Origin: a virus
Lineage: Duplodnaviria > Heunggongvirae > Uroviricota > Caudoviricetes
DNA: 4,613 bases
Direction: 5' to 3' (one strand)
IMG/VR virus record: IMGVR_UViG_2731957954_000006
Span: 1-4,613 of that record
The notes under the pieces were generated by a model. The model was not told the DNA's origin. It worked only from the letters and a program-made list of their open reading frames with translations, and made no database searches. The translations under genes were made by a program, and so were the position numbers. Positions 1 to 4,613 of the stretch are shown one piece after another (within the stretch, counting starts at the first letter, position 1; every line of letters starts with the position of its first letter).

Positions 1-404
1 CCAACAACCAGTTCGGTCTGGGAATTTATCTGTATACCGATGTAGCGTTACCTGACGTCGTGGCGATGACCGGGACTGGTAACCCGTTCCTGATGTCGTT
101 CTTCACCCAGACCACAGACGGCAAACTGAATCTGATGCATCACAAGAAAGCCGGAAACACAAAGTTGGGCGAGTTCGGGAATTACAGTAACGACTGGCAG
201 ACGCTGGAGCTGGTGTTCACCGCCGGCAGTGCCACGGTTACTCCGAAACTGAATGGAGTGGCTGGCCCGGCATTCCAGGTCATAAAAGACAGTCTGACAG
301 TGGGACTAAATGCACTGACGCTGACGGATATTACCAAAAATGCAACGTATGGCGTTGAGATAGAAAGTCTGGTGCTGGAGATAAATGCACCGGCATCATC
401 ATAA
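1..404 (+). CDS. 3' end of a larger late-region ORF (5' end lies outside the window); function not assignable
   Basis: The frame ending at TAA 402-404 is open back to the window edge (hand translation of 3-59 gives NNQFGLGIYLYTDVALPDVV with no stop), so the GTG at 60 in the ORF track is not the real start. The translation is protein-like but I recognise no motif. Its position directly upstream of the holin matches the large ORF that lambdoid prophages carry between Q and S. Confidence 0.6.
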   Translation, partial: NNQFGLGIYLYTDVALPDVVAMTGTGNPFLMSFFTQTTDGKLNLMHHKKAGNTKLGEFGNYSNDWQTLELVFTAGSATVTPKLNGVAGPAFQVIKDSLTVGLNALTLTDITKNATYGVEIESLVLEINAPASS

Positions 405-489
405 AAAGTGAGCCAGTCAAATGGAAGGTATCGTTAAACTCACCGGTAGTGTCAGTGGGTCGTCTGAGATGCCTGCATGAGTTATCAGA

Positions 490-519
490 GCCATCAGTAC
501 TTAACTGGTGGCTTTTTTT
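490..519 (+). terminator. Rho-independent terminator-like hairpin upstream of the holin
   Basis: GCCATCAGT (490-498), loop ACTTA, ACTGGTGGC (504-512): a 9-bp stem with one G-U pair, followed directly by TTTTTTT (513-519). It lies 86 bp after the upstream ORF stop and 36 bp before the holin start. Confidence 0.55.
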
Positions 520-554
520 ATTGTTGTCAGCTTCCGGATAACGGGAGACGGGGT

Positions 555-770
555 ATGTACCAGATGGAAAAAATCACAACAGGTGTGTCATACACCACGT
601 CAGCGGTGGGAACGGGCTACTGGTTCCTGCAGTTGCTGGACAGGGTTTCCCCGTCTCAGTGGGCGGCAATAGGCGTGCTGGGGAGTCTGCTGTTTGGGCT
701 GCTGACATATCTGACTAACCTGTATTTCAAAATCAGAGAGGACCGTCGTAAGGCGGCGCGGGGGGAGTAA
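555..770 (+). CDS. S: Class II holin, phage 21 S21-type pinholin (71 aa), with dual-start motif
   Basis: The translation [71 protein letters not shown] closely resembles S21 as I recall it (two TM segments, charged C-terminal tail [13 protein letters not shown]). ATG 555 and ATG 564 form the M-x-x-M dual start typical of antiholin/holin pairs. SD GGAGA at 544-548. The track ORF starting at 477 would run through the terminator hairpin and is rejected as the start. Confidence 0.9.
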
Positions 771-774
771 AGCG

Positions 775-1416
775 ATGAAGAAAAAATACGAACTGGGTGT
801 TAAAGGGATAAATAATTATCCGGATAAGATTACTGTTACTGTGGCACTGGAAATTGGTGGGTATCCGTCACTGTTGTTGCCAGATGTGGCGATTAGTCTT
901 GACCGTACTGAAGGTGCCACGCTGGAGTTTTACGAAGCTGAGGCGAAAAAGCAGGCGAAGCAGTTTTTCATGGATGTTGCTGCCGGGTTATGTGAAGGGA
1001 ACGAACCGTTGCCGGAAAAGCGCCCCATAATTTTAGAGGCGCAGGATGTGTTGATAACCTACAAAGGAAAGCTACCGGGAAGAATTACTGGTTCTCTGAA
1101 GATGCCGCCGTCAACACTGCGGTCAGAAAAAGAGGCGTCTTGTCTGCAGTCTGAGTACTCCATTACGGTTAAAAGTGCCGGAGAGGAAGGAAATAAACGT
1201 TATTTTATTGCGTCTGCACCTGATAAAGATCAGGAATGGGAGTGTAACCGGCCATCCTTTGTTGTATACGGAGATGGCGGGAAAATAACCATCTCAGAAA
1301 ATGGGAAATTAACACCGCCATCGCACCAGCATAGTGAGGCGCTCATTGAATTTGCCATTGATTACCTGAAGAACAATAAAAAGCAGGGGCTGATGAAGCG
1401 CCATGGGCTGTGTTAA
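775..1416 (+). CDS. Hypothetical 213-aa soluble protein inserted between holin and endolysin (possibly DUF1327/YdfR-like; unverified)
   Basis: ATG 775 lies 4 nt after the holin stop, with SD GGGGAG (762-767) inside the holin 3' end. The ORF is long and uninterrupted with a balanced, hydrophilic composition and no N-terminal signal peptide or TM segment. The same position in E. coli Qin prophage is occupied by ydfR, but I cannot confirm homology from memory. Confidence 0.75.
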   Translation: MKKKYELGVKGINNYPDKITVTVALEIGGYPSLLLPDVAISLDRTEGATLEFYEAEAKKQAKQFFMDVAAGLCEGNEPLPEKRPIILEAQDVLITYKGKLPGRITGSLKMPPSTLRSEKEASCLQSEYSITVKSAGEEGNKRYFIASAPDKDQEWECNRPSFVVYGDGGKITISENGKLTPPSHQHSEALIEFAIDYLKNNKKQGLMKRHGLC

Positions 1417-1584
1417 TGCTCTGGCGATAATGCCGAGAGTCACAGGTGTGAGATGTCCATACGGCTCAGCCTGAATGGATTTTACTGCATCGTGTTCTTG
1501 TGGGAGGAGTAAGAGGCACTCTGATTTTACCCGCTCATTTATGGCTTGCAGGCATAAATCATAATTATGTTGATCGTTATGCAT
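1309..1584 (-). CDS. Candidate small convergent ORF (91 aa) in the holin-endolysin spacer
   Basis: Minus-strand ATG at 1582-1584 is preceded by AGAGGA with a 6-nt spacer (reverse complement of 1585-1597). The first 55 codons or so lie in otherwise non-coding DNA; the last 36 overlap the 3' end of the 213-aa ORF. No recognisable family. Confidence 0.3.
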   Translation of the reverse strand: MHNDQHNYDLCLQAINERVKSECLLLLPQEHDAVKSIQAEPYGHLTPVTLGIIARALTQPMALHQPLLFIVLQVINGKFNERLTMLVRWRC

Positions 1585-1712
1585 GGTTAATCCTCTACTG
1601 AAATTGTCAGATATATTTCAGCCATCAGGAAAAACGCCAGTGTCCTACCGCTGGCGGGCTGAAGATTTAACATATCCAGGGATTCGGAACCGATAAATCC
1701 TGATAAATATCC

Positions 1713-2246
1713 ATGAACACCAAAATCAAATATGGCCTGTCGGCTGCCGTTCTGGCGTTGATTGCCATCGGTGCGCCTGCGCCTGATATTCTCGACCAGT
1801 TTCTGGATGAAAAAGAAGGTAACCACACAACGGCATACCGTGATGGTGCGGGTATCTGGACCATCTGCCGCGGTGCCACAATGGTGGATGGTAAACCTGT
1901 TATTCCGGGCATGAAACTGTCGAAGGAAAAATGCGACCAGGTTAATGCCATTGAACGGGATAAGGCGCTGGCATGGGTGGAGCGCAATATTAAAGTTCCA
2001 CTGACCGAACCACAGAAAGCGGGTATAGCGTCATTCTGTCCCTATAACATTGGCCCCGGTAAGTGTTTCCCGTCGACGTTTTATAAGCGGCTGAATGCTG
2101 GTGACCGCAGGGGAGCGTGTGAGGCGATTCGCTGGTGGATTAAGGACGGTGGCAGAGACTGCCGTATCCGCTCAAATAACTGTTATGGTCAGGTATCCCG
2201 TCGTGACCAGGAGAGCGCGCTGGCGTGCTGGGGAATCGACAGATAA
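1713..2246 (+). CDS. R: SAR endolysin, T4-lysozyme-type muramidase (GH24), 177 aa
   Basis: The N-terminus KYGLSAAVLALIAIGAPAP is a Gly/Ala-rich weakly hydrophobic signal-anchor-release segment. The catalytic triad spacing E-x8-D-x5-T is present (EGNHTTAYRDGAGIWT). Overall layout resembles R21. No convincing SD upstream of ATG 1713. Confidence 0.9.
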   Translation: MNTKIKYGLSAAVLALIAIGAPAPDILDQFLDEKEGNHTTAYRDGAGIWTICRGATMVDGKPVIPGMKLSKEKCDQVNAIERDKALAWVERNIKVPLTEPQKAGIASFCPYNIGPGKCFPSTFYKRLNAGDRRGACEAIRWWIKDGGRDCRIRSNNCYGQVSRRDQESALACWGIDR

Positions 2247-2340
2247 GCAGAATATTTTGCTGAAAAATAAGGTATGGCCACGCGGGCGGATAACACGAAA
2301 TCCTGCGAACTGGCGAAACGTAAGTGAATAAAAGTAAAAA

Positions 2341-2372
2341 CCCCGTTTGTTGGCACCAAGCGGGGTTTTGTG
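2341..2372 (+). terminator. Terminator-like hairpin after the endolysin (possibly bidirectional)
   Basis: CCCCG (2341-2345) pairs with CGGGG (2361-2365), with partial extra pairing TTGG/CCAA inside; followed by TTTTGTGTTT and preceded by AAAAA (2336-2340). Confidence 0.5.
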
Positions 2373-2402
2373 TTTCTGACCTTGAGTAAGGCAAGGGAGA
2401 AC

Positions 2403-2585
2403 ATGGCGAAGTATAAACGAATTCTGTTGAGGTTGACTATGAAAAATGGCCTTGAACTGAAAGCGCCTGTAACTGATGACATCAGCAGAGCACTGGCTTT
2501 TGCCATTAAGTGGGTGGCGGTCGGTGTTGCTGTGTTCCCGATGCTGTATGGGCTGGCAAAACTGGTCATTGCGTTGAAATCGTGA
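2403..2585 (+). CDS. Small membrane protein, 60 aa, basic N-terminus and one C-terminal TM segment
   Basis: Strong SD AAGGGAGA (2391-2398) 4 nt before ATG 2403. Translation [60 protein letters not shown]. The GTG at 2370 used by the track lies inside the hairpin and is rejected as the start. Confidence 0.55.
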
Positions 2586-2599
2586 AGGGAGGATTAAGC

Positions 2600-2731
2600 A
2601 TGTCAGACAAACTCATAACGCTGGCGAAGATCCTCTGTGTAATTGTCGGCATTTCATTTTCACTAATGCTGGTTGCTCTTTTTCTTTCCATGGCCTGGAT
2701 GATGTTGTCTTCGTCGGGGTTGCTGGGGTGA
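2600..2731 (+). CDS. Small membrane protein, 43 aa, single TM segment
   Basis: SD GAAGGGAGGA (2585-2594) overlaps the stop of the preceding small ORF, with ATG at 2600. Translation [43 protein letters not shown]. Its TGA stop (2729-2731) overlaps the Rz GTG start (2728-2730) as GTGA. Confidence 0.5.
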
Positions 2732-3201
2732 ACATAAACCGAATGCTTTCCGCGTTTATCGTTATTCTGCTGGTGGCCTGTGGTGCGCTGTGGATGGCAA
2801 CAGACCATTACCGTGATAACGCGATTACCTACAAAGCGCAGCGCGATAACAAAGCCAGTGAACTGAAGCTGGCGAACGCAACCATTACTGATATGCAGGT
2901 GCGCCAGCGCGATGTTGCTGCGCTCGATGCAAAATACTCGAGGGAATTATCCGATGCGAGAGCTGAAAATGAAACTCTGCGCGCTGATGTTGCCGCTGGT
3001 CGTAAGCGCCTGCGGATCAACGCCACCTGTCCAGGCTCCGTGCGTGAAGCCCCCACCACCTCCGGCGTGGATAATGCAACCGGCCCCCAACTGGCAGACA
3101 CCGTTACACGGGATTATTTCACCCTCAGAGAGCGGCTGATGACGATGCACAAGCAACTGGAAGGGGCACAGGACTATATCCGCACTCAGTGCCTGAAATA
3201 A
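2728..3201 (+). CDS. Rz: Rz inner-membrane spanin (i-spanin)
   Basis: Strong resemblance to lambda Rz as recalled ([45 protein letters not shown] ... [27 protein letters not shown]), with an N-terminal TM segment and coiled-coil body. The start could be GTG 2728 (coupled) or ATG 2743. Confidence 0.9.
2954..3139 (+). CDS. Rz1: Rz1 outer-membrane lipoprotein spanin (o-spanin), embedded in the +1 frame of Rz
   Basis: Translation [61 protein letters not shown] has a lipobox (VSAC), a proline-rich stretch and the conserved [14 protein letters not shown] core of lambda Rz1. It lies wholly inside Rz. Confidence 0.85.
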
Positions 3202-3551
3202 GTTTTGTTGATGCGCCGTATCGTCGCTGTATTCCCTCATTAACAGAGACCGCAGCCCGACAGGGAGACTCCTCTGCGCGAGTGTGCGGGGATAATCAAA
3301 AACGATACACACCGGGGTTTACCGCGTTAACGGAGCGCGGCGTTGTCCCCTCATAGTCGCCTGTCCGGTGCGATGGTGGAAGAAGCCGGATGTTTATCAC
3401 TATTAATTGATGACACAGAAATGGATTCATTGAATTTCAGCACGTTTTTGTATTCGTGTTATTGAACATCTGTTAATTTTACTTTTAACATATTGATAAT
3501 AAAAAGAGCTGTAAATCTTTAGATGAGTCGATTTTGTCCGGGGAAGTTCAA

Positions 3552-3692
3552 ATGGATTTTATGCTGACGGTTTCTGGTGTGGTTATCCTGTCCATTGCTT
3601 ATACTGCAGATAAATATGGCTGCCATTTGTTATCACGTATTGGCGCTTATTGTTCGTTGATGCTGATTTTCTCGTCGCTTTTTTTTGAGTAA
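3552..3692 (+). CDS. Candidate 46-aa hydrophobic small protein in AT-rich island
   Basis: ATG 3552 is preceded by GGGGAAG with a 5-nt spacer. Translation MDFMLTVSGVVILSIAYTADKYGCHLLSRIGAYCSLMLIFSSLFFE. The ORF is followed by a T-run and sits in a locally AT-rich segment (about 3400-3720). Confidence 0.25.
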   Translation: MDFMLTVSGVVILSIAYTADKYGCHLLSRIGAYCSLMLIFSSLFFE

Positions 3693-3824
3693 GTTATATT
3701 AATTATAACAAATAATTTTCTGTGTTATTTTTTCAGGCTATCCCGTCAGAGGGGAAGCCTGTACTGCCGGGGAGCAAATGGAAAACTGATGTGTCCGGTA
3801 ACTGCGTGTTCTGTGAACACCATG

Positions 3825-4010
3825 TTACTTAATTATGTAATTCATACCCGAACTCTCTGTTGACAGCCTTCTTCTGCAGGCTTCAATAACCCACGCTGAA
3901 AAGTTTCCTGAACCTTTCAGATCAAGAGCGATGTTAATTTGTTCAATCATCTGGTTTGGAAATCGGATGTTGCGGGTTGTTGTTCTGCGGGTTCTGTTCT
4001 TTGATGACAT
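3825..4010 (-). CDS. Small YlcI/YnfO-like (DUF3950-type) prophage protein, 61 aa
   Basis: Translation MSSKNRTRRTTTRNIRFPNQMIEQINIALDLKGSGNFSAWVIEACRRRLSTESSGMNYIIK resembles, from memory, the small proteins encoded next to Nu1 homologues in E. coli cryptic prophages (ylcI by nohD, ynfO by nohQ). A ribbon-helix-helix-like fold is possible. Confidence 0.6.
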   Translation of the reverse strand: MSSKNRTRRTTTRNIRFPNQMIEQINIALDLKGSGNFSAWVIEACRRRLSTESSGMNYIIK

Positions 4011-4165
4011 AACGTTTCCCCATATTCAGTGTTGCTGATTTGTATTATCTGAAGTTGCTTTTACGTTAATTTGACGCAGATCAATTAATACGATACCTGC
4101 GTCATAATTGATTATTTCTCGTGGTTTGATGGCGTACACACATGTTGTGATAAACCTTATATAGA

Positions 4166-4180
4166 TGATAATCATTATCA
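4166..4180. promoter_or_regulatory. Perfect 7-1-7 palindrome TGATAATCATTATCA, Fur-box-like
   Basis: Seen directly in the sequence; matches the Fur operator inverted-repeat model tGATAATnATTATCa. Further GATAA-type hexamers lie just upstream (TGTGATAAACC, TAGATGATAAT). It is about 37 bp left of cosN. Confidence 0.3.
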
Positions 4181-4204
4181 TTTCGTGGGTCCTTTCCGGC
4201 GATC

Positions 4205-4404
4205 CGACCGGTTACGGGGCGGCGACCTCGCGGTTTTTCACTATTTATGAAAATTTTTCAGGGAAAATCGTGTCGGTACTTCTCGAATATAACTTTTTGT
4301 TTTTTTTAATATTACATCCGTAAAGGTCCGACATGAAAGTGTCCGAAAATGCCTTTTTCTGGCGTTTTCATGTCGGGCCTTGTATTTGATAATGGGTTGT
4401 TTTC
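4205..4404 (+). other. cos: Lambda-type cohesive end site (cosN with flanking cosB)
   Basis: CGGTTACG|GGGCGGCGACCT|CGCGG matches the lambda cos junction, with the 12-nt cohesive end GGGCGGCGACCT at 4217-4228. The downstream CACTATTTATGAAAATTTTTCAGG matches the lambda cosB proximal region. The nu1 start follows at 4405. Confidence 0.85.
4324..4380. promoter_or_regulatory. Inverted repeat in cosB (candidate terminase small-subunit binding sites or RNA hairpin)
   Basis: AGGTCCGACATGAAA (4324-4338) and TTTCATGTCGGGCCT (4366-4380) are reverse complements at 14 of 15 positions, separated by 27 nt, about 25 bp upstream of the nu1 start. Confidence 0.35.
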
Positions 4405-4613
4405 ATGAAGGTTAATAAAAAGAGGCTTGCCGAAATTTTCAACGTGGACCCGCGGACGATTGAACGCTGGCAGTCTCAGGGACTCCCTTGCGCCTCCAAA
4501 GGTAGTAAGGGCATTGAATCTGTATTTGATACTGCCATGGCAATTCAGTGGTATGCGCAGAGGGAAACTGATATCGAAAACGAAAAGCTCCGCAAAGAAC
4601 TGGACGATTTGCG
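4405..4613 (+). CDS. nu1: Terminase small subunit Nu1 (N-terminal part; continues beyond window)
   Basis: Translation [69 protein letters not shown] aligns by eye with lambda Nu1 (MEVNKKQLADIFGASIRTIQNWQEQGMP ... IENEKLRREVEELR), including the winged-HTH region. Absent from the ORF track because it runs off the window end. Confidence 0.9.

Follow-up and report, generated by a model that had tools for sequence, protein, structure and literature searches.

A conserved pair of predicted mini membrane-protein genes, headed by a structured leader, between the endolysin and Rz genes of a lambdoid Escherichia coli prophage

Lysis cassettes of prophages that encode Shiga toxin (Stx) set the time of the burst and hence the release of Shiga toxin and of phage, and they are usually described as consisting of a holin, an endolysin and Rz/Rz1. 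What, then, is the role of further small genes wedged into such a cassette? This question is raised by a window of 4,613 nucleotides (the whole stretch of DNA that we analysed; positions 1 to 4,613 of the IMG/VR virus record IMGVR_UViG_2731957954_000006), which is the late region of a lambdoid Escherichia coli prophage according to the gene order given by the list of open reading frames (ORFs), the Prokaryotic Genome Annotation Pipeline (PGAP), Pfam and the PHROGs. Between the endolysin gene R and Rz, closely packed with the lysis genes and on their strand, lie two ORFs of 60 codons (ORF1; ATG 2403, TGA 2585) and 43 codons (ORF2; ATG 2600, TGA 2731) that are separated by 14 nt. They had been picked out in an earlier note made from the DNA sequence, and both are present as described there. 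The segment 2247–2731 is 100% identical to that of E. coli O104:H4 strain 2011C-3493 and of six other O104:H4 records, and at least 80% of it is present in 990 of 5,426 complete E. coli genomes. Collectively, our data confirm the observation and make it more general than the earlier note supposed. By their sequence features, the two products would be classed among the small accessory membrane proteins encoded in phage late operons; the best single reading, which we put forward tentatively, is that of a module of late-expressed accessory membrane peptides acting during lysis.

ORF1 and ORF2 are real genes that are under purifying selection in their own reading frames only. Among the 145 loci fetched for the conservation analysis, every full-length copy was intact (126/126 for ORF1 and 122/122 for ORF2). 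Comparison of the window with the most divergent alleles yielded Nei-Gojobori ratios of nonsynonymous to synonymous substitution rates (dN/dS) of 0.12–0.36 for ORF1 and of 0.22–0.40 for ORF2, while reading these alignments in the two shifted frames gave values of 0.7–2.2. The survey of related prophages that the earlier note had proposed hence found both frames conserved and selected. In the databases, the two genes are already recorded as hypothetical proteins (RefSeq WP_001151822.1 for ORF1 and WP_001280932.1 for ORF2). They match PHROG families of unknown function, phrog_1115 for ORF1 (E = 7e-42) and phrog_4906 for ORF2 (E = 2e-23), and ORF1 additionally matches the equally uncharacterised families 4493 and 3246. 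Protein homologues occur only in Escherichia, Shigella and Salmonella, and all of them are unnamed. When 1.84 billion representative proteins were searched with a profile built from the ORF1 alignment, 25 matches were recovered, all of them small phage-like peptides, and a scan of one-genome-per-species contigs gave no confirmed relative. The profile search shows the ORF1 family to be narrow. A literature search by accession, locus tag and peptide string found no paper that gives ORF1 or ORF2 a function.

The closest documented relative is XECs191 of E. coli O157:H7 strain Sakai, a small gene reported as novel and translated, whose product is predicted to have one membrane helix and to reside in the inner membrane (Hücker et al., 2017; PMC5597208). 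In lysogeny broth (LB), it gave values of 30.0 reads per kilobase per million mapped reads (RPKM) for RNA and 12.6 RPKM for ribosome footprints, with a coverage of 0.55 (PMC5597208). XECs191 is a homologue of ORF2 (about 70% identity; 48–49 amino acids) that lies directly 5' of Rz in prophage Sp10; it is now listed as ECs_1966 in Sakai, corresponds to EDL933_1392 in EDL933 and is annotated as a hypothetical protein. It differs from ORF2 of the window in that it is preceded by an antirepressor gene and not by ORF1. The earlier note would have given up the genes had ribosome profiling shown no translation; the Sakai homologue of ORF2 does have a footprint signal, albeit a weak one from uninduced cultures.

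What kind of proteins do these genes encode? One hydrophobic helix per ORF had been claimed, and hydropathy analysis as well as AlphaFold models bear this out. Kyte-Doolittle means over 19 residues peak at 2.07 in ORF1 (residues 38–56) and at 2.89 in ORF2 (residues 11–29). AlphaFold models ORF1 as a helix of residues 2–15, a loop and a second helix of 38 residues (22–59) with a predicted local distance difference test score (pLDDT) of 78, and ORF2 as one helix of residues 2–38 (pLDDT 87.5). The net charge of the N-terminal flank is +4 in ORF1 and +1 in ORF2, and only short tails follow the hydrophobic segments, two residues (KS) in ORF1 and eight uncharged ones (LSSSGLLG) in ORF2. Because of these flank charges and short tails, both N-termini are predicted to be cytoplasmic. 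ORF1 is thus a predicted tail-anchored inner-membrane protein with a basic N-terminal helix and a C-terminal membrane helix, and ORF2 a predicted inner-membrane peptide that would expose its N-terminus to the cytoplasm and its C-terminus to the outside, hardly any of it extending into the periplasm.

A strong Shine-Dalgarno sequence had been assigned to each ORF. For ORF2 this holds true, since GGAGG (2588–2592) is well spaced, with the ATG following 7 nt on; the ORF1 site AAGGGAG (2393–2399), in contrast, crowds the ATG at 2403, from which it is only about 3 nt away. ORF1 has a candidate second start at the internal ATG 2439 (Met13), which is preceded by GAGG (2429–2432) at an ideal spacing of 6 nt and would give a 48-amino-acid isoform (2439–2585) that begins with MKNGLE, the first residues of a motif (MKNGLExxAP) conserved in ORF1. 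This shorter form is used by many gene callers, database entries and distant homologues, while the N-terminal extension is also kept in the distant members P0245 and P0250. The two candidate products would differ by a net N-terminal charge of +4, and each start has a ribosome-binding-like element.

At its 3' end, ORF2 meets Rz. The overlap GTGA that the earlier note described does exist (GTG 2728, TGA 2729–2731); what is conserved among relatives is the close packing and not this exact overlap, the spacing being either an overlap or 8–11 nt. PGAP places the start of Rz at ATG 2743, and in 13 of 79 related loci an Rz ATG lies 8 nt past the ORF2 stop codon. On sequence grounds, GTG 2728 is the better Rz start of the window, because the N-terminus that it provides (MNINRML) parallels the MNRVL of other Rz proteins and because the sole basic residue before the Rz membrane helix comes with it. 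The phrog_13 alignment begins at residue 4 of the GTG-started protein.

This arrangement suggests a reading in which the ORFs are mere translated leaders that deliver ribosomes to Rz or stabilise the mRNA, the peptides themselves being functionless and their hydrophobicity incidental. It would accord with the finding that a small ORF stops within 0–11 nt of the Rz start in all junction types, and with the RWW ending plus stop codon (CGC TGG TGG TGA) of several peptides, which doubles as the ribosome-binding-like element GGTGGTGA for Rz; this common ending may be due in part to the ribosome-binding site of Rz. Nevertheless, we regard this explanation as very improbable. Selection acts on the amino acids, and polar and small residues are conserved inside the helices; moreover, the peptides are kept where no Rz follows (in cassettes with a GH108 endolysin, in phage SEN34 and in a Pseudomonas phage), ORF2 has a strong ribosome-binding site of its own, and lambda, whose R directly abuts or overlaps Rz, couples the two genes without such an ORF.

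Comparison with relatives shows that the pair moves as a unit. When 80 IMG/VR loci were compared with the window, ORF1 and ORF2 had median nucleotide identities of 98.4% and 99.2%, those of R and Rz being 90.1% and 96.2%, and the G+C content of the pair (0.46–0.48) lies below that of R and Rz (0.53–0.55). Furthermore, the pair occurs in a different type of cassette (39 of the 47 loci L084–L130), with amino-acid identities to the window of 83–90% for ORF1 and 58–67% for ORF2. This alternative cassette lacks Rz; it contains a Phage_holin_8 protein, a three-transmembrane-segment (3TM) holin and a soluble GH108 endolysin, and directly 3' of ORF2 it carries a gene for a 60-amino-acid lipoprotein. 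The pair is hence independent of the type of holin and endolysin. A role specific to the pinholin of the window, which the earlier note had entertained, or to its signal-anchor-release (SAR) endolysin is unlikely because the same pair recurs with other holins and a soluble GH108 endolysin, without Rz; for the same reason, the function cannot hinge on one particular holin or endolysin. Sequence comparison of the loci indicates that the pair and its leader are mobile as a unit.

Of the two genes, ORF2 is by far the more widespread. Translated searches (tblastn) found full-length ORF2 homologues (65–81% identity) in 276 phage records, mostly without an annotated feature, among them 933W-like Stx2a phages, phi24B, Min27 and the Stx phage of EDL933, while ORF1 was found in only 14 phage records; Rz itself matched 673 records, in 402 of which it is at least 60% identical to the Rz of the window. 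In Min27 (L152 2498–2632) and Sakai Sp10 (L153 3625–3771), the ORF2 homologue lies between an antirepressor gene and Rz, 7–8 nt from the Rz ATG. The neighbour on the 3' side was Rz, or the lipoprotein gene in GH108 cassettes, in every ORF2 locus whose context was examined. Phages without ORF1 and ORF2 have another occupant of the junction, a mostly unannotated 45-amino-acid tail-anchored peptide, MFDFSKLIREIRVMAEKLSTWKFILIWLVFVIMASGYFIGQIRWW (DFSKLIRE type), whose carriers share the spacer, the hairpin and the ribosome-binding site with the window and whose stop codon lies 1 nt away from the ATG of Rz. It was found in 53 phage records, including H-19B, TL-2011c, Stx1a and Stx2c phages, the Stx2a phage Stx2_95 (L146 2660–2797) and SPN3UB (L150 2001–2138). 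Neither the Qin region of E. coli K-12, in which rrrQ overlaps rzpQ, nor lambda has a gene resembling ORF1 or ORF2. The junction of R and Rz is thus the variable insertion point that the earlier note took it for, with several types of mini-genes or none in place. As to its statement that the pair stands outside the canonical cassette, the anatomy is correct, yet the pair is nothing unusual, since a mini membrane-protein ORF in front of Rz is the rule in Stx phages. Some loci carry whole arrays of three or four such ORFs (28–50 amino acids), located between R and Rz in L135 (2814–3363) and between endolysin and lipoprotein in L095 (3233–3465); these arrays include chimeras in which other N-termini are joined to the ORF1 C-terminus, as well as frame-shifted ORF2-ORF1 fusions (P0083 and P0093).

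How is the module headed? A terminator-like hairpin in front of ORF1 had been noted, and it is real: it spans 2337–2369 (13 bp; −18.9 kcal/mol; z = −2.5), is the top-ranked terminator-like site of the window, is terminator-like on both strands with its A-run on the 5' and its T-run on the 3' side, and forms the 5' boundary of the mobile module. It is more than the mere terminator-like preface that had been described, because it is part of a conserved leader of about 65 nt that moves with ORF1 and also contains a second stem (2370–2402) over the ribosome-binding site. In every context, the order of elements is an A-run, a CCCCG-stem-CGGGG hairpin, a T-run, TGTTTCTGAC, CCTTG-N7-CAAGG, GAGAAC and the start codon, and the homology between the two types of cassettes starts exactly at the hairpin. 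When 17 diverse leaders were aligned, no cell of the hairpin helix was left unpaired; compensatory changes occur at two pairs (11 cells), and the covariation score was reached by none of 500 shuffles. In the second stem, UUUCU is matched to GGGAG of the ribosome-binding site and CCUUG to CAAGG, and part of the AUG is included; the two helices of this stem pair in 96.5% and 92% of the cells with one-sided changes only, so that this structure is supported rather than proven. The single-sequence fold of 2330–2420 has a free energy of −28.3 kcal/mol (z = −2.8). Beyond the loop and the inner stem of the hairpin, leader positions are mostly near-invariant, with four that vary. A search of Rfam with E-values up to 1 returned no noteworthy family for the region.

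The leader is not confined to lysis cassettes. In Salmonella phage SEN34, it precedes a gene for a DFSKLIRE peptide that lies between the baseplate genes V and W, and in Pseudomonas phage YMC11/02/R656 a DFSKLIRE-type gene (L148 1998–2144) among the tail genes; in the latter phage, a second membrane ORF of 38 amino acids follows (L148 2171–2287), which makes up a two-gene unit analogous to ORF1-ORF2 in a distant host. A pattern scan of IMG/VR yielded at least 120 matches to the leader. Among the 120 matches listed, the first gene after the leader always encodes a peptide of the ORF1 or the DFSKLIRE family (35 distinct sequences). As for the contexts of these 120 matches, about 92 are of the R21-type endolysin-Rz kind, 7 follow a GH108 endolysin gene, 11 are baseplate operons of the SEN34 type and 4 are Pseudomonas tail regions; in about 85%, the module lies directly 3' of an endolysin gene, of two unrelated types. 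The ORF1 and DFSKLIRE families are built alike: the N-terminus is basic and amphipathic, a Met lies in the interior, and a membrane helix forms the C-terminal part. We considered, and rejected, uniting ORF1 and the DFSKLIRE-RWW peptides in one superfamily: hhalign finds nothing that aligns with ORF1 itself, and only the last 15 residues of the DFSKLIRE-RWW peptides align, with 56% probability, with RWW-ending ORF1 relatives, members of the ORF1 family with this ending being known.

In our favoured reading of accessory late membrane peptides, the segment from the hairpin through ORF2 (2337–2731) would be a mobile, promoter-less module placed after the endolysin gene. On the sense strand, a simple consensus scan of the interval from R to ORF1 detected nothing resembling a sigma-70 promoter, and the terminator scan found no terminator-like site between ORF2 and Rz. 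Given the lack of a sense promoter and the terminator-like hairpin in front, the mRNA of the module would stem only from Q-antiterminated late transcription that reads through from S and R. Translation of ORF1 would be further restrained by the pairing of the leader with its ribosome-binding site, and ORF2 would be translated from its own strong site and pass ribosomes on to Rz. Modelled in this way, the partly hidden ribosome-binding site of ORF1 would look like a precaution against making a product that harms the lysogen. Both products would insert into the inner membrane and accumulate alongside holin, endolysin and spanin, where they might tune the timing or the completeness of envelope disruption through helix-helix contacts or by perturbing the membrane directly. 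Neither appears to be an enzyme or a component needed for lysis; since lambda and the K-12 Qin prophage have no such genes, the function is dispensable and not essential. What makes us prefer a lysis-associated role is the combination of probable late expression and membrane insertion with the position after an endolysin gene in about 85% of the leader matches and with the fixed place of ORF2 before Rz.

Several findings weigh against this reading. ORF1 and ORF2 have no homology to holin, antiholin, releasin or spanin families, and lambda and K-12 Qin manage without any gene of this kind. The absence of a promoter is the result of a simple consensus scan, and the expression data consist of low-level signals of the Sakai homologue from uninduced cultures only. 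Finally, about 12% of the 120 leader matches listed lie in baseplate or tail operons (SEN34-like and Pseudomonas phages); these are still late operons, so that they would fit late expression, but not a role strictly bound to the lysis cassette.

The same facts on distribution and expression can be read in another way, namely that the pair is moron-type cargo whose peptides are made in the lysogen and benefit host or prophage, either through superinfection exclusion or by altering a host membrane protein. We consider this rather unlikely. A moron, in the sense that Juhala and colleagues are said to have given to the word in 2000, has its own promoter upstream and a terminator downstream. The module shares with such elements its presence or absence among related phages and a G+C content (lower than that of its less well conserved flanks) unlike that of its surroundings; several unrelated families of mini membrane proteins occupy the same junction, relatives occupy positions among tail and baseplate genes that are classic for morons, and the ORF2 homologue of Sakai gives RNA and footprint signals in uninduced cultures. 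The layout of promoter, gene and terminator was not found, insofar as the consensus scan can tell: no sense promoter was detected, and the hairpin lies upstream instead of downstream, with no terminator between ORF2 and Rz. In addition, the ribosome-binding site of ORF1 is predicted to be occluded by the leader, and the signal from uninduced cultures may stem from spontaneous induction. HK97 gp15, which mediates superinfection exclusion by blocking the entry of DNA at the inner membrane, is a comparable case. Like ORF1, it is a phage protein of about 60 residues (62 amino acids, with a strongly hydrophobic N-terminal half) from an accessory gene in a lambdoid late operon. Its gene, annotated as that of a moron product, is followed by a putative terminator, whereas the module of the window has its hairpin in front, no terminator behind ORF2 and no sense promoter. 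BLAST comparisons of ORF1 and ORF2 with gp15, with the N-terminus of Rz, with the K-12 Qin region and with each other gave no significant similarity, and no PADLOC defence model matched either ORF. Superinfection exclusion exerted from the prophage, which the earlier note had listed among its candidate roles, is therefore disfavoured, given the missing sense promoter and the terminator-like hairpin upstream.

A further reading starts from the leader. ORF1 and the DFSKLIRE-RWW peptides might be membrane-toxic and silenced by a cis-encoded antisense RNA of about 75 nt that ends at the bidirectional hairpin; toxin would then be made only once late transcription out-titrates the antisense RNA, either as an aid to lysis or as an addiction or abortive-infection device, and the hairpin would travel with the gene as the terminator of the antisense RNA. 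The candidate promoter (2410–2439, minus strand) consists of a −35 element TAGTCA (2439–2434) and a −10 element TATACT (2415–2410) with 18 nt between them, matches the consensus at 9 of 12 positions and would start transcription at about 2403, at the start codon of ORF1; the transcript would pass over the ribosome-binding site of ORF1 and the leader before reaching the hairpin. Its hexamers are kept in 127 of 127 ORF1 copies, and the unrelated DFSKLIRE genes have an extended −10 element, TGCTAAAAT, in the corresponding place, be it in phages of E. coli, of Salmonella or of Pseudomonas. The hairpin with its conserved A-run and T-run is terminator-like in both directions (minus-strand tail T5ACT4), the leader is recognisably kept from E. 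coli to Pseudomonas phages, and it precedes only the ORF1 and DFSKLIRE families among the 120 IMG/VR matches listed. The synonymous diversity of ORF1 is halved in its 5' part (0.096 for codons 2–29 versus 0.174 for codons 30–60), and the predicted antisense RNA of 78 nt would fold into a pair of hairpins followed by a U-tail, as is typical of small RNAs (sRNAs). The product is a small hydrophobic peptide, and the leader of its mRNA is predicted to hide the ribosome-binding site. This model would explain why a promoter-less gene has a terminator at its 5' end, even in a P2-like operon without antitermination.

Nevertheless, we regard the antisense model as doubtful. Promoter matches at 9 of 12 positions are no commoner in the window than in shuffled sequences (6 found, 6.2 expected), and the hexamers lie in coding sequence, so that their conservation may come from the protein alone. 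Unlike a classical type I locus, the module lacks a sense-strand toxin promoter, and the gap between hairpin and ATG is 33 nt; nor does Rfam contain a matching family. None of the 63 placeable Hfq-bound EcOnc sRNAs detected in O157:H7 Sakai by cross-linking and analysis of cDNA (Hfq-CRAC) maps to the R-Rz junction, the sole exactly mapped junction (that of Sp10) being one without the leader; the nearest is EcOnc11, about 215 nt 3' of Rz in Sp10. Cis-antisense RNAs often do not bind Hfq. The type I loci symE/symR, hok/sok and ldr/rdl have antisense RNAs that overlap the 5' part of the toxin gene. The module resembles them in its small hydrophobic peptide, in the structured leader that hides the ribosome-binding site and in the candidate antisense promoter within the first codons; it differs in that the antisense RNA is only predicted, that there is no sense promoter, that it resides in a late operon and that neither toxin homology nor an Rfam match was found. 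In size and hydrophobicity, ORF1 and ORF2 would suit putative type I toxins (below about 60 amino acids). In its widest form, which we likewise hold to be improbable, this proposal would make the hairpin-headed unit a new mobile promoter-less late cassette made up of a bidirectional terminator, an occluding leader, a tail-anchored peptide and an antisense silencer of about 75 nt. Such a cassette would have spread across the lysis cassettes of lambdoid phages of E. coli and Salmonella, a P2-like Salmonella baseplate operon and the tail regions of Pseudomonas siphophages, with the ORF2-type peptides as a separate, Rz-linked partner, and would amount to a type I toxin-like lysis or late-killing system.

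Returning to accessory peptides of lysis as the preferred reading, do ORF1 and ORF2 resemble any known lysis protein? Apart from the sub-threshold hit discussed below, neither ORF matched Pfam, NCBIfam or the holin PHROGs at E-values up to 1, and the sensitive homology search recommended in the earlier note returned no characterised lysis accessory protein. ORF2 was tried as a member of Pfam DUF3930 and rejected; the score of 13.2 bits (E = 0.08) is below the gathering threshold of 25 bits and was taken as a chance hydrophobic match. With S105/S107 of lambda and S68/S71 of phage 21, the two ORFs share that they are small membrane proteins in a lysis cassette, late expression being inferred here, and the two candidate starts of ORF1 (Met1 and Met13) recall the dual-start arrangement of these pairs. 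They are unlike holin/antiholin pairs in that there is no sequence or profile similarity, that the true pinholin gene is already present at 555–770 and that the pair also occurs with unrelated holins; neither the KS tail of ORF1 nor the LSSSGLLG tail of ORF2 is the charged, hydrophilic, cytoplasmic C-terminal tail of a holin. The releasin gp25 of phage Mu is a single-helix accessory lysis factor from a cluster with a SAR endolysin and is neither holin, endolysin nor spanin; it comprises 99 amino acids (DUF2730), its N-terminus lies on the outside, and 73 amino acids form an acidic domain in the cytoplasm (PMC9239132). ORF1 and ORF2 are likewise small single-helix membrane proteins in a lysis cluster with a SAR endolysin. 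Yet the predicted orientation of ORF1 is reversed (basic cytoplasmic N-terminus and C-terminal anchor), there is no DUF2730 match and the pair is also found with GH108 endolysins.

A spanin identity was rejected as well, since the predicted periplasmic parts comprise about 2 and about 8 residues, no lipobox precedes Cys13 of ORF2, and Rz/Rz1 follow in the window. A different matter is the lipoprotein of 60 amino acids (lipobox LLSGC or FLVGC; phrog_7528) encoded in L091 (3352–3534), phiP27 (L147 3527–3706) and L095 (3467–3649), whose gene closes cassettes with two holins and a GH108 or M15 endolysin. In the roughly 6 kb fetched around these cassettes, no Rz/Rz1 homologue was found, and the lipoprotein may be an unrecognised outer-membrane-acting lysis factor of apparently spanin-less phages. 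The notion that ORF1, ORF2 and this L091-type lipoprotein together substitute for a spanin was discarded, since the predicted periplasmic parts fall far short of what would be needed, and since phiP27 encodes the lipoprotein but neither ORF1 nor ORF2.

For the Stx phages, these findings mean that most cassettes carry at least one more conserved, selected and membrane-targeted gene before Rz, which is usually unannotated. While the genes as such are in the databases, what is new is the prevalence of mostly unannotated mini-ORFs directly 5' of Rz, the independence of the pair from the type of holin and endolysin, a conserved and covarying leader common to phages of three host genera and, as a candidate, antisense control. 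If the peptides tune the timing of lysis or kill the membrane, they would be determinants of toxin release and burst size. Antisense control, if true, would be a new regulatory layer in phage late operons, and a type I-like cassette would be an accessory system overlooked in hundreds of Stx phage genomes. Annotation pipelines should at least call these genes.

The remainder of the window is that of a lambdoid late region. It opens with the C-terminus of a SASA-family esterase gene (to 404), directly 3' of which lies a strong terminator-like hairpin (487–515); at the equivalent post-esterase site of Sakai prophage Sp6, the Hfq-bound sRNA EcOnc33 (about 71 nt) is encoded on the minus strand. The anti-sRNA consensus of AgvB/AsxR was sought in the window and is absent. 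The S21-type pinholin gene (555–770, plus strand; PF04971, E = 9e-33; holin PHROGs) is followed by a DUF1327/YdfR-like gene (775–1416), which is an intact ORF of 213 codons here and overlaps a minus-strand ORF at 1309–1584 (phrog_1853); PGAP lists the YdfR-family gene of NC_018658 as a pseudogene. About 321 bp that O104:H4 and IMG/VR relatives have between the YdfR-like gene and R are missing from the window at about 1401–1713, as judged against L001 and L004. R itself (1713–2246, plus strand; WP_001092910.1) encodes an R21-like lysozyme with a hydrophobic N-terminus, of the SAR type (PF00959, E = 2.8e-25; phrog_7). The non-coding spacer behind it (2247–2336, plus strand; G+C content 0.43) is common to Stx phages without ORF1 and ORF2, and the 155 nt from 2247 to 2401 are 87–90% identical in many Stx1a and Stx2a phages. 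This spacer holds a block, GCGGATAACACGAAATCCTGCGAACTGGC, that is kept across junctions of the window type, of Stx2_95 and of L135; a short ORF over the block, MATRADNTKSCELAKRK, has no conserved reading frame.

Downstream of the module, the Rz i-spanin gene (2728 or 2743 to 3201, plus strand; PF03245, E = 7e-47; phrog_13, E = 4e-73) contains the embedded o-spanin gene Rz1 (2954–3139, plus strand), which was recognised from the ORF list and its translation by the lipobox LVVSAC and which we take to resemble Rz1 of lambda. Further 3' lies another hydrophobic membrane ORF of 46 codons (3552–3692; WP_000347013.1, hypothetical) without a match in Pfam, PHROG or NCBIfam, followed by a YlcI/DUF3950 gene on the minus strand (3825–4010), a cos-like sequence at about 4200 and the gene for the small subunit of the terminase, which begins at 4405.

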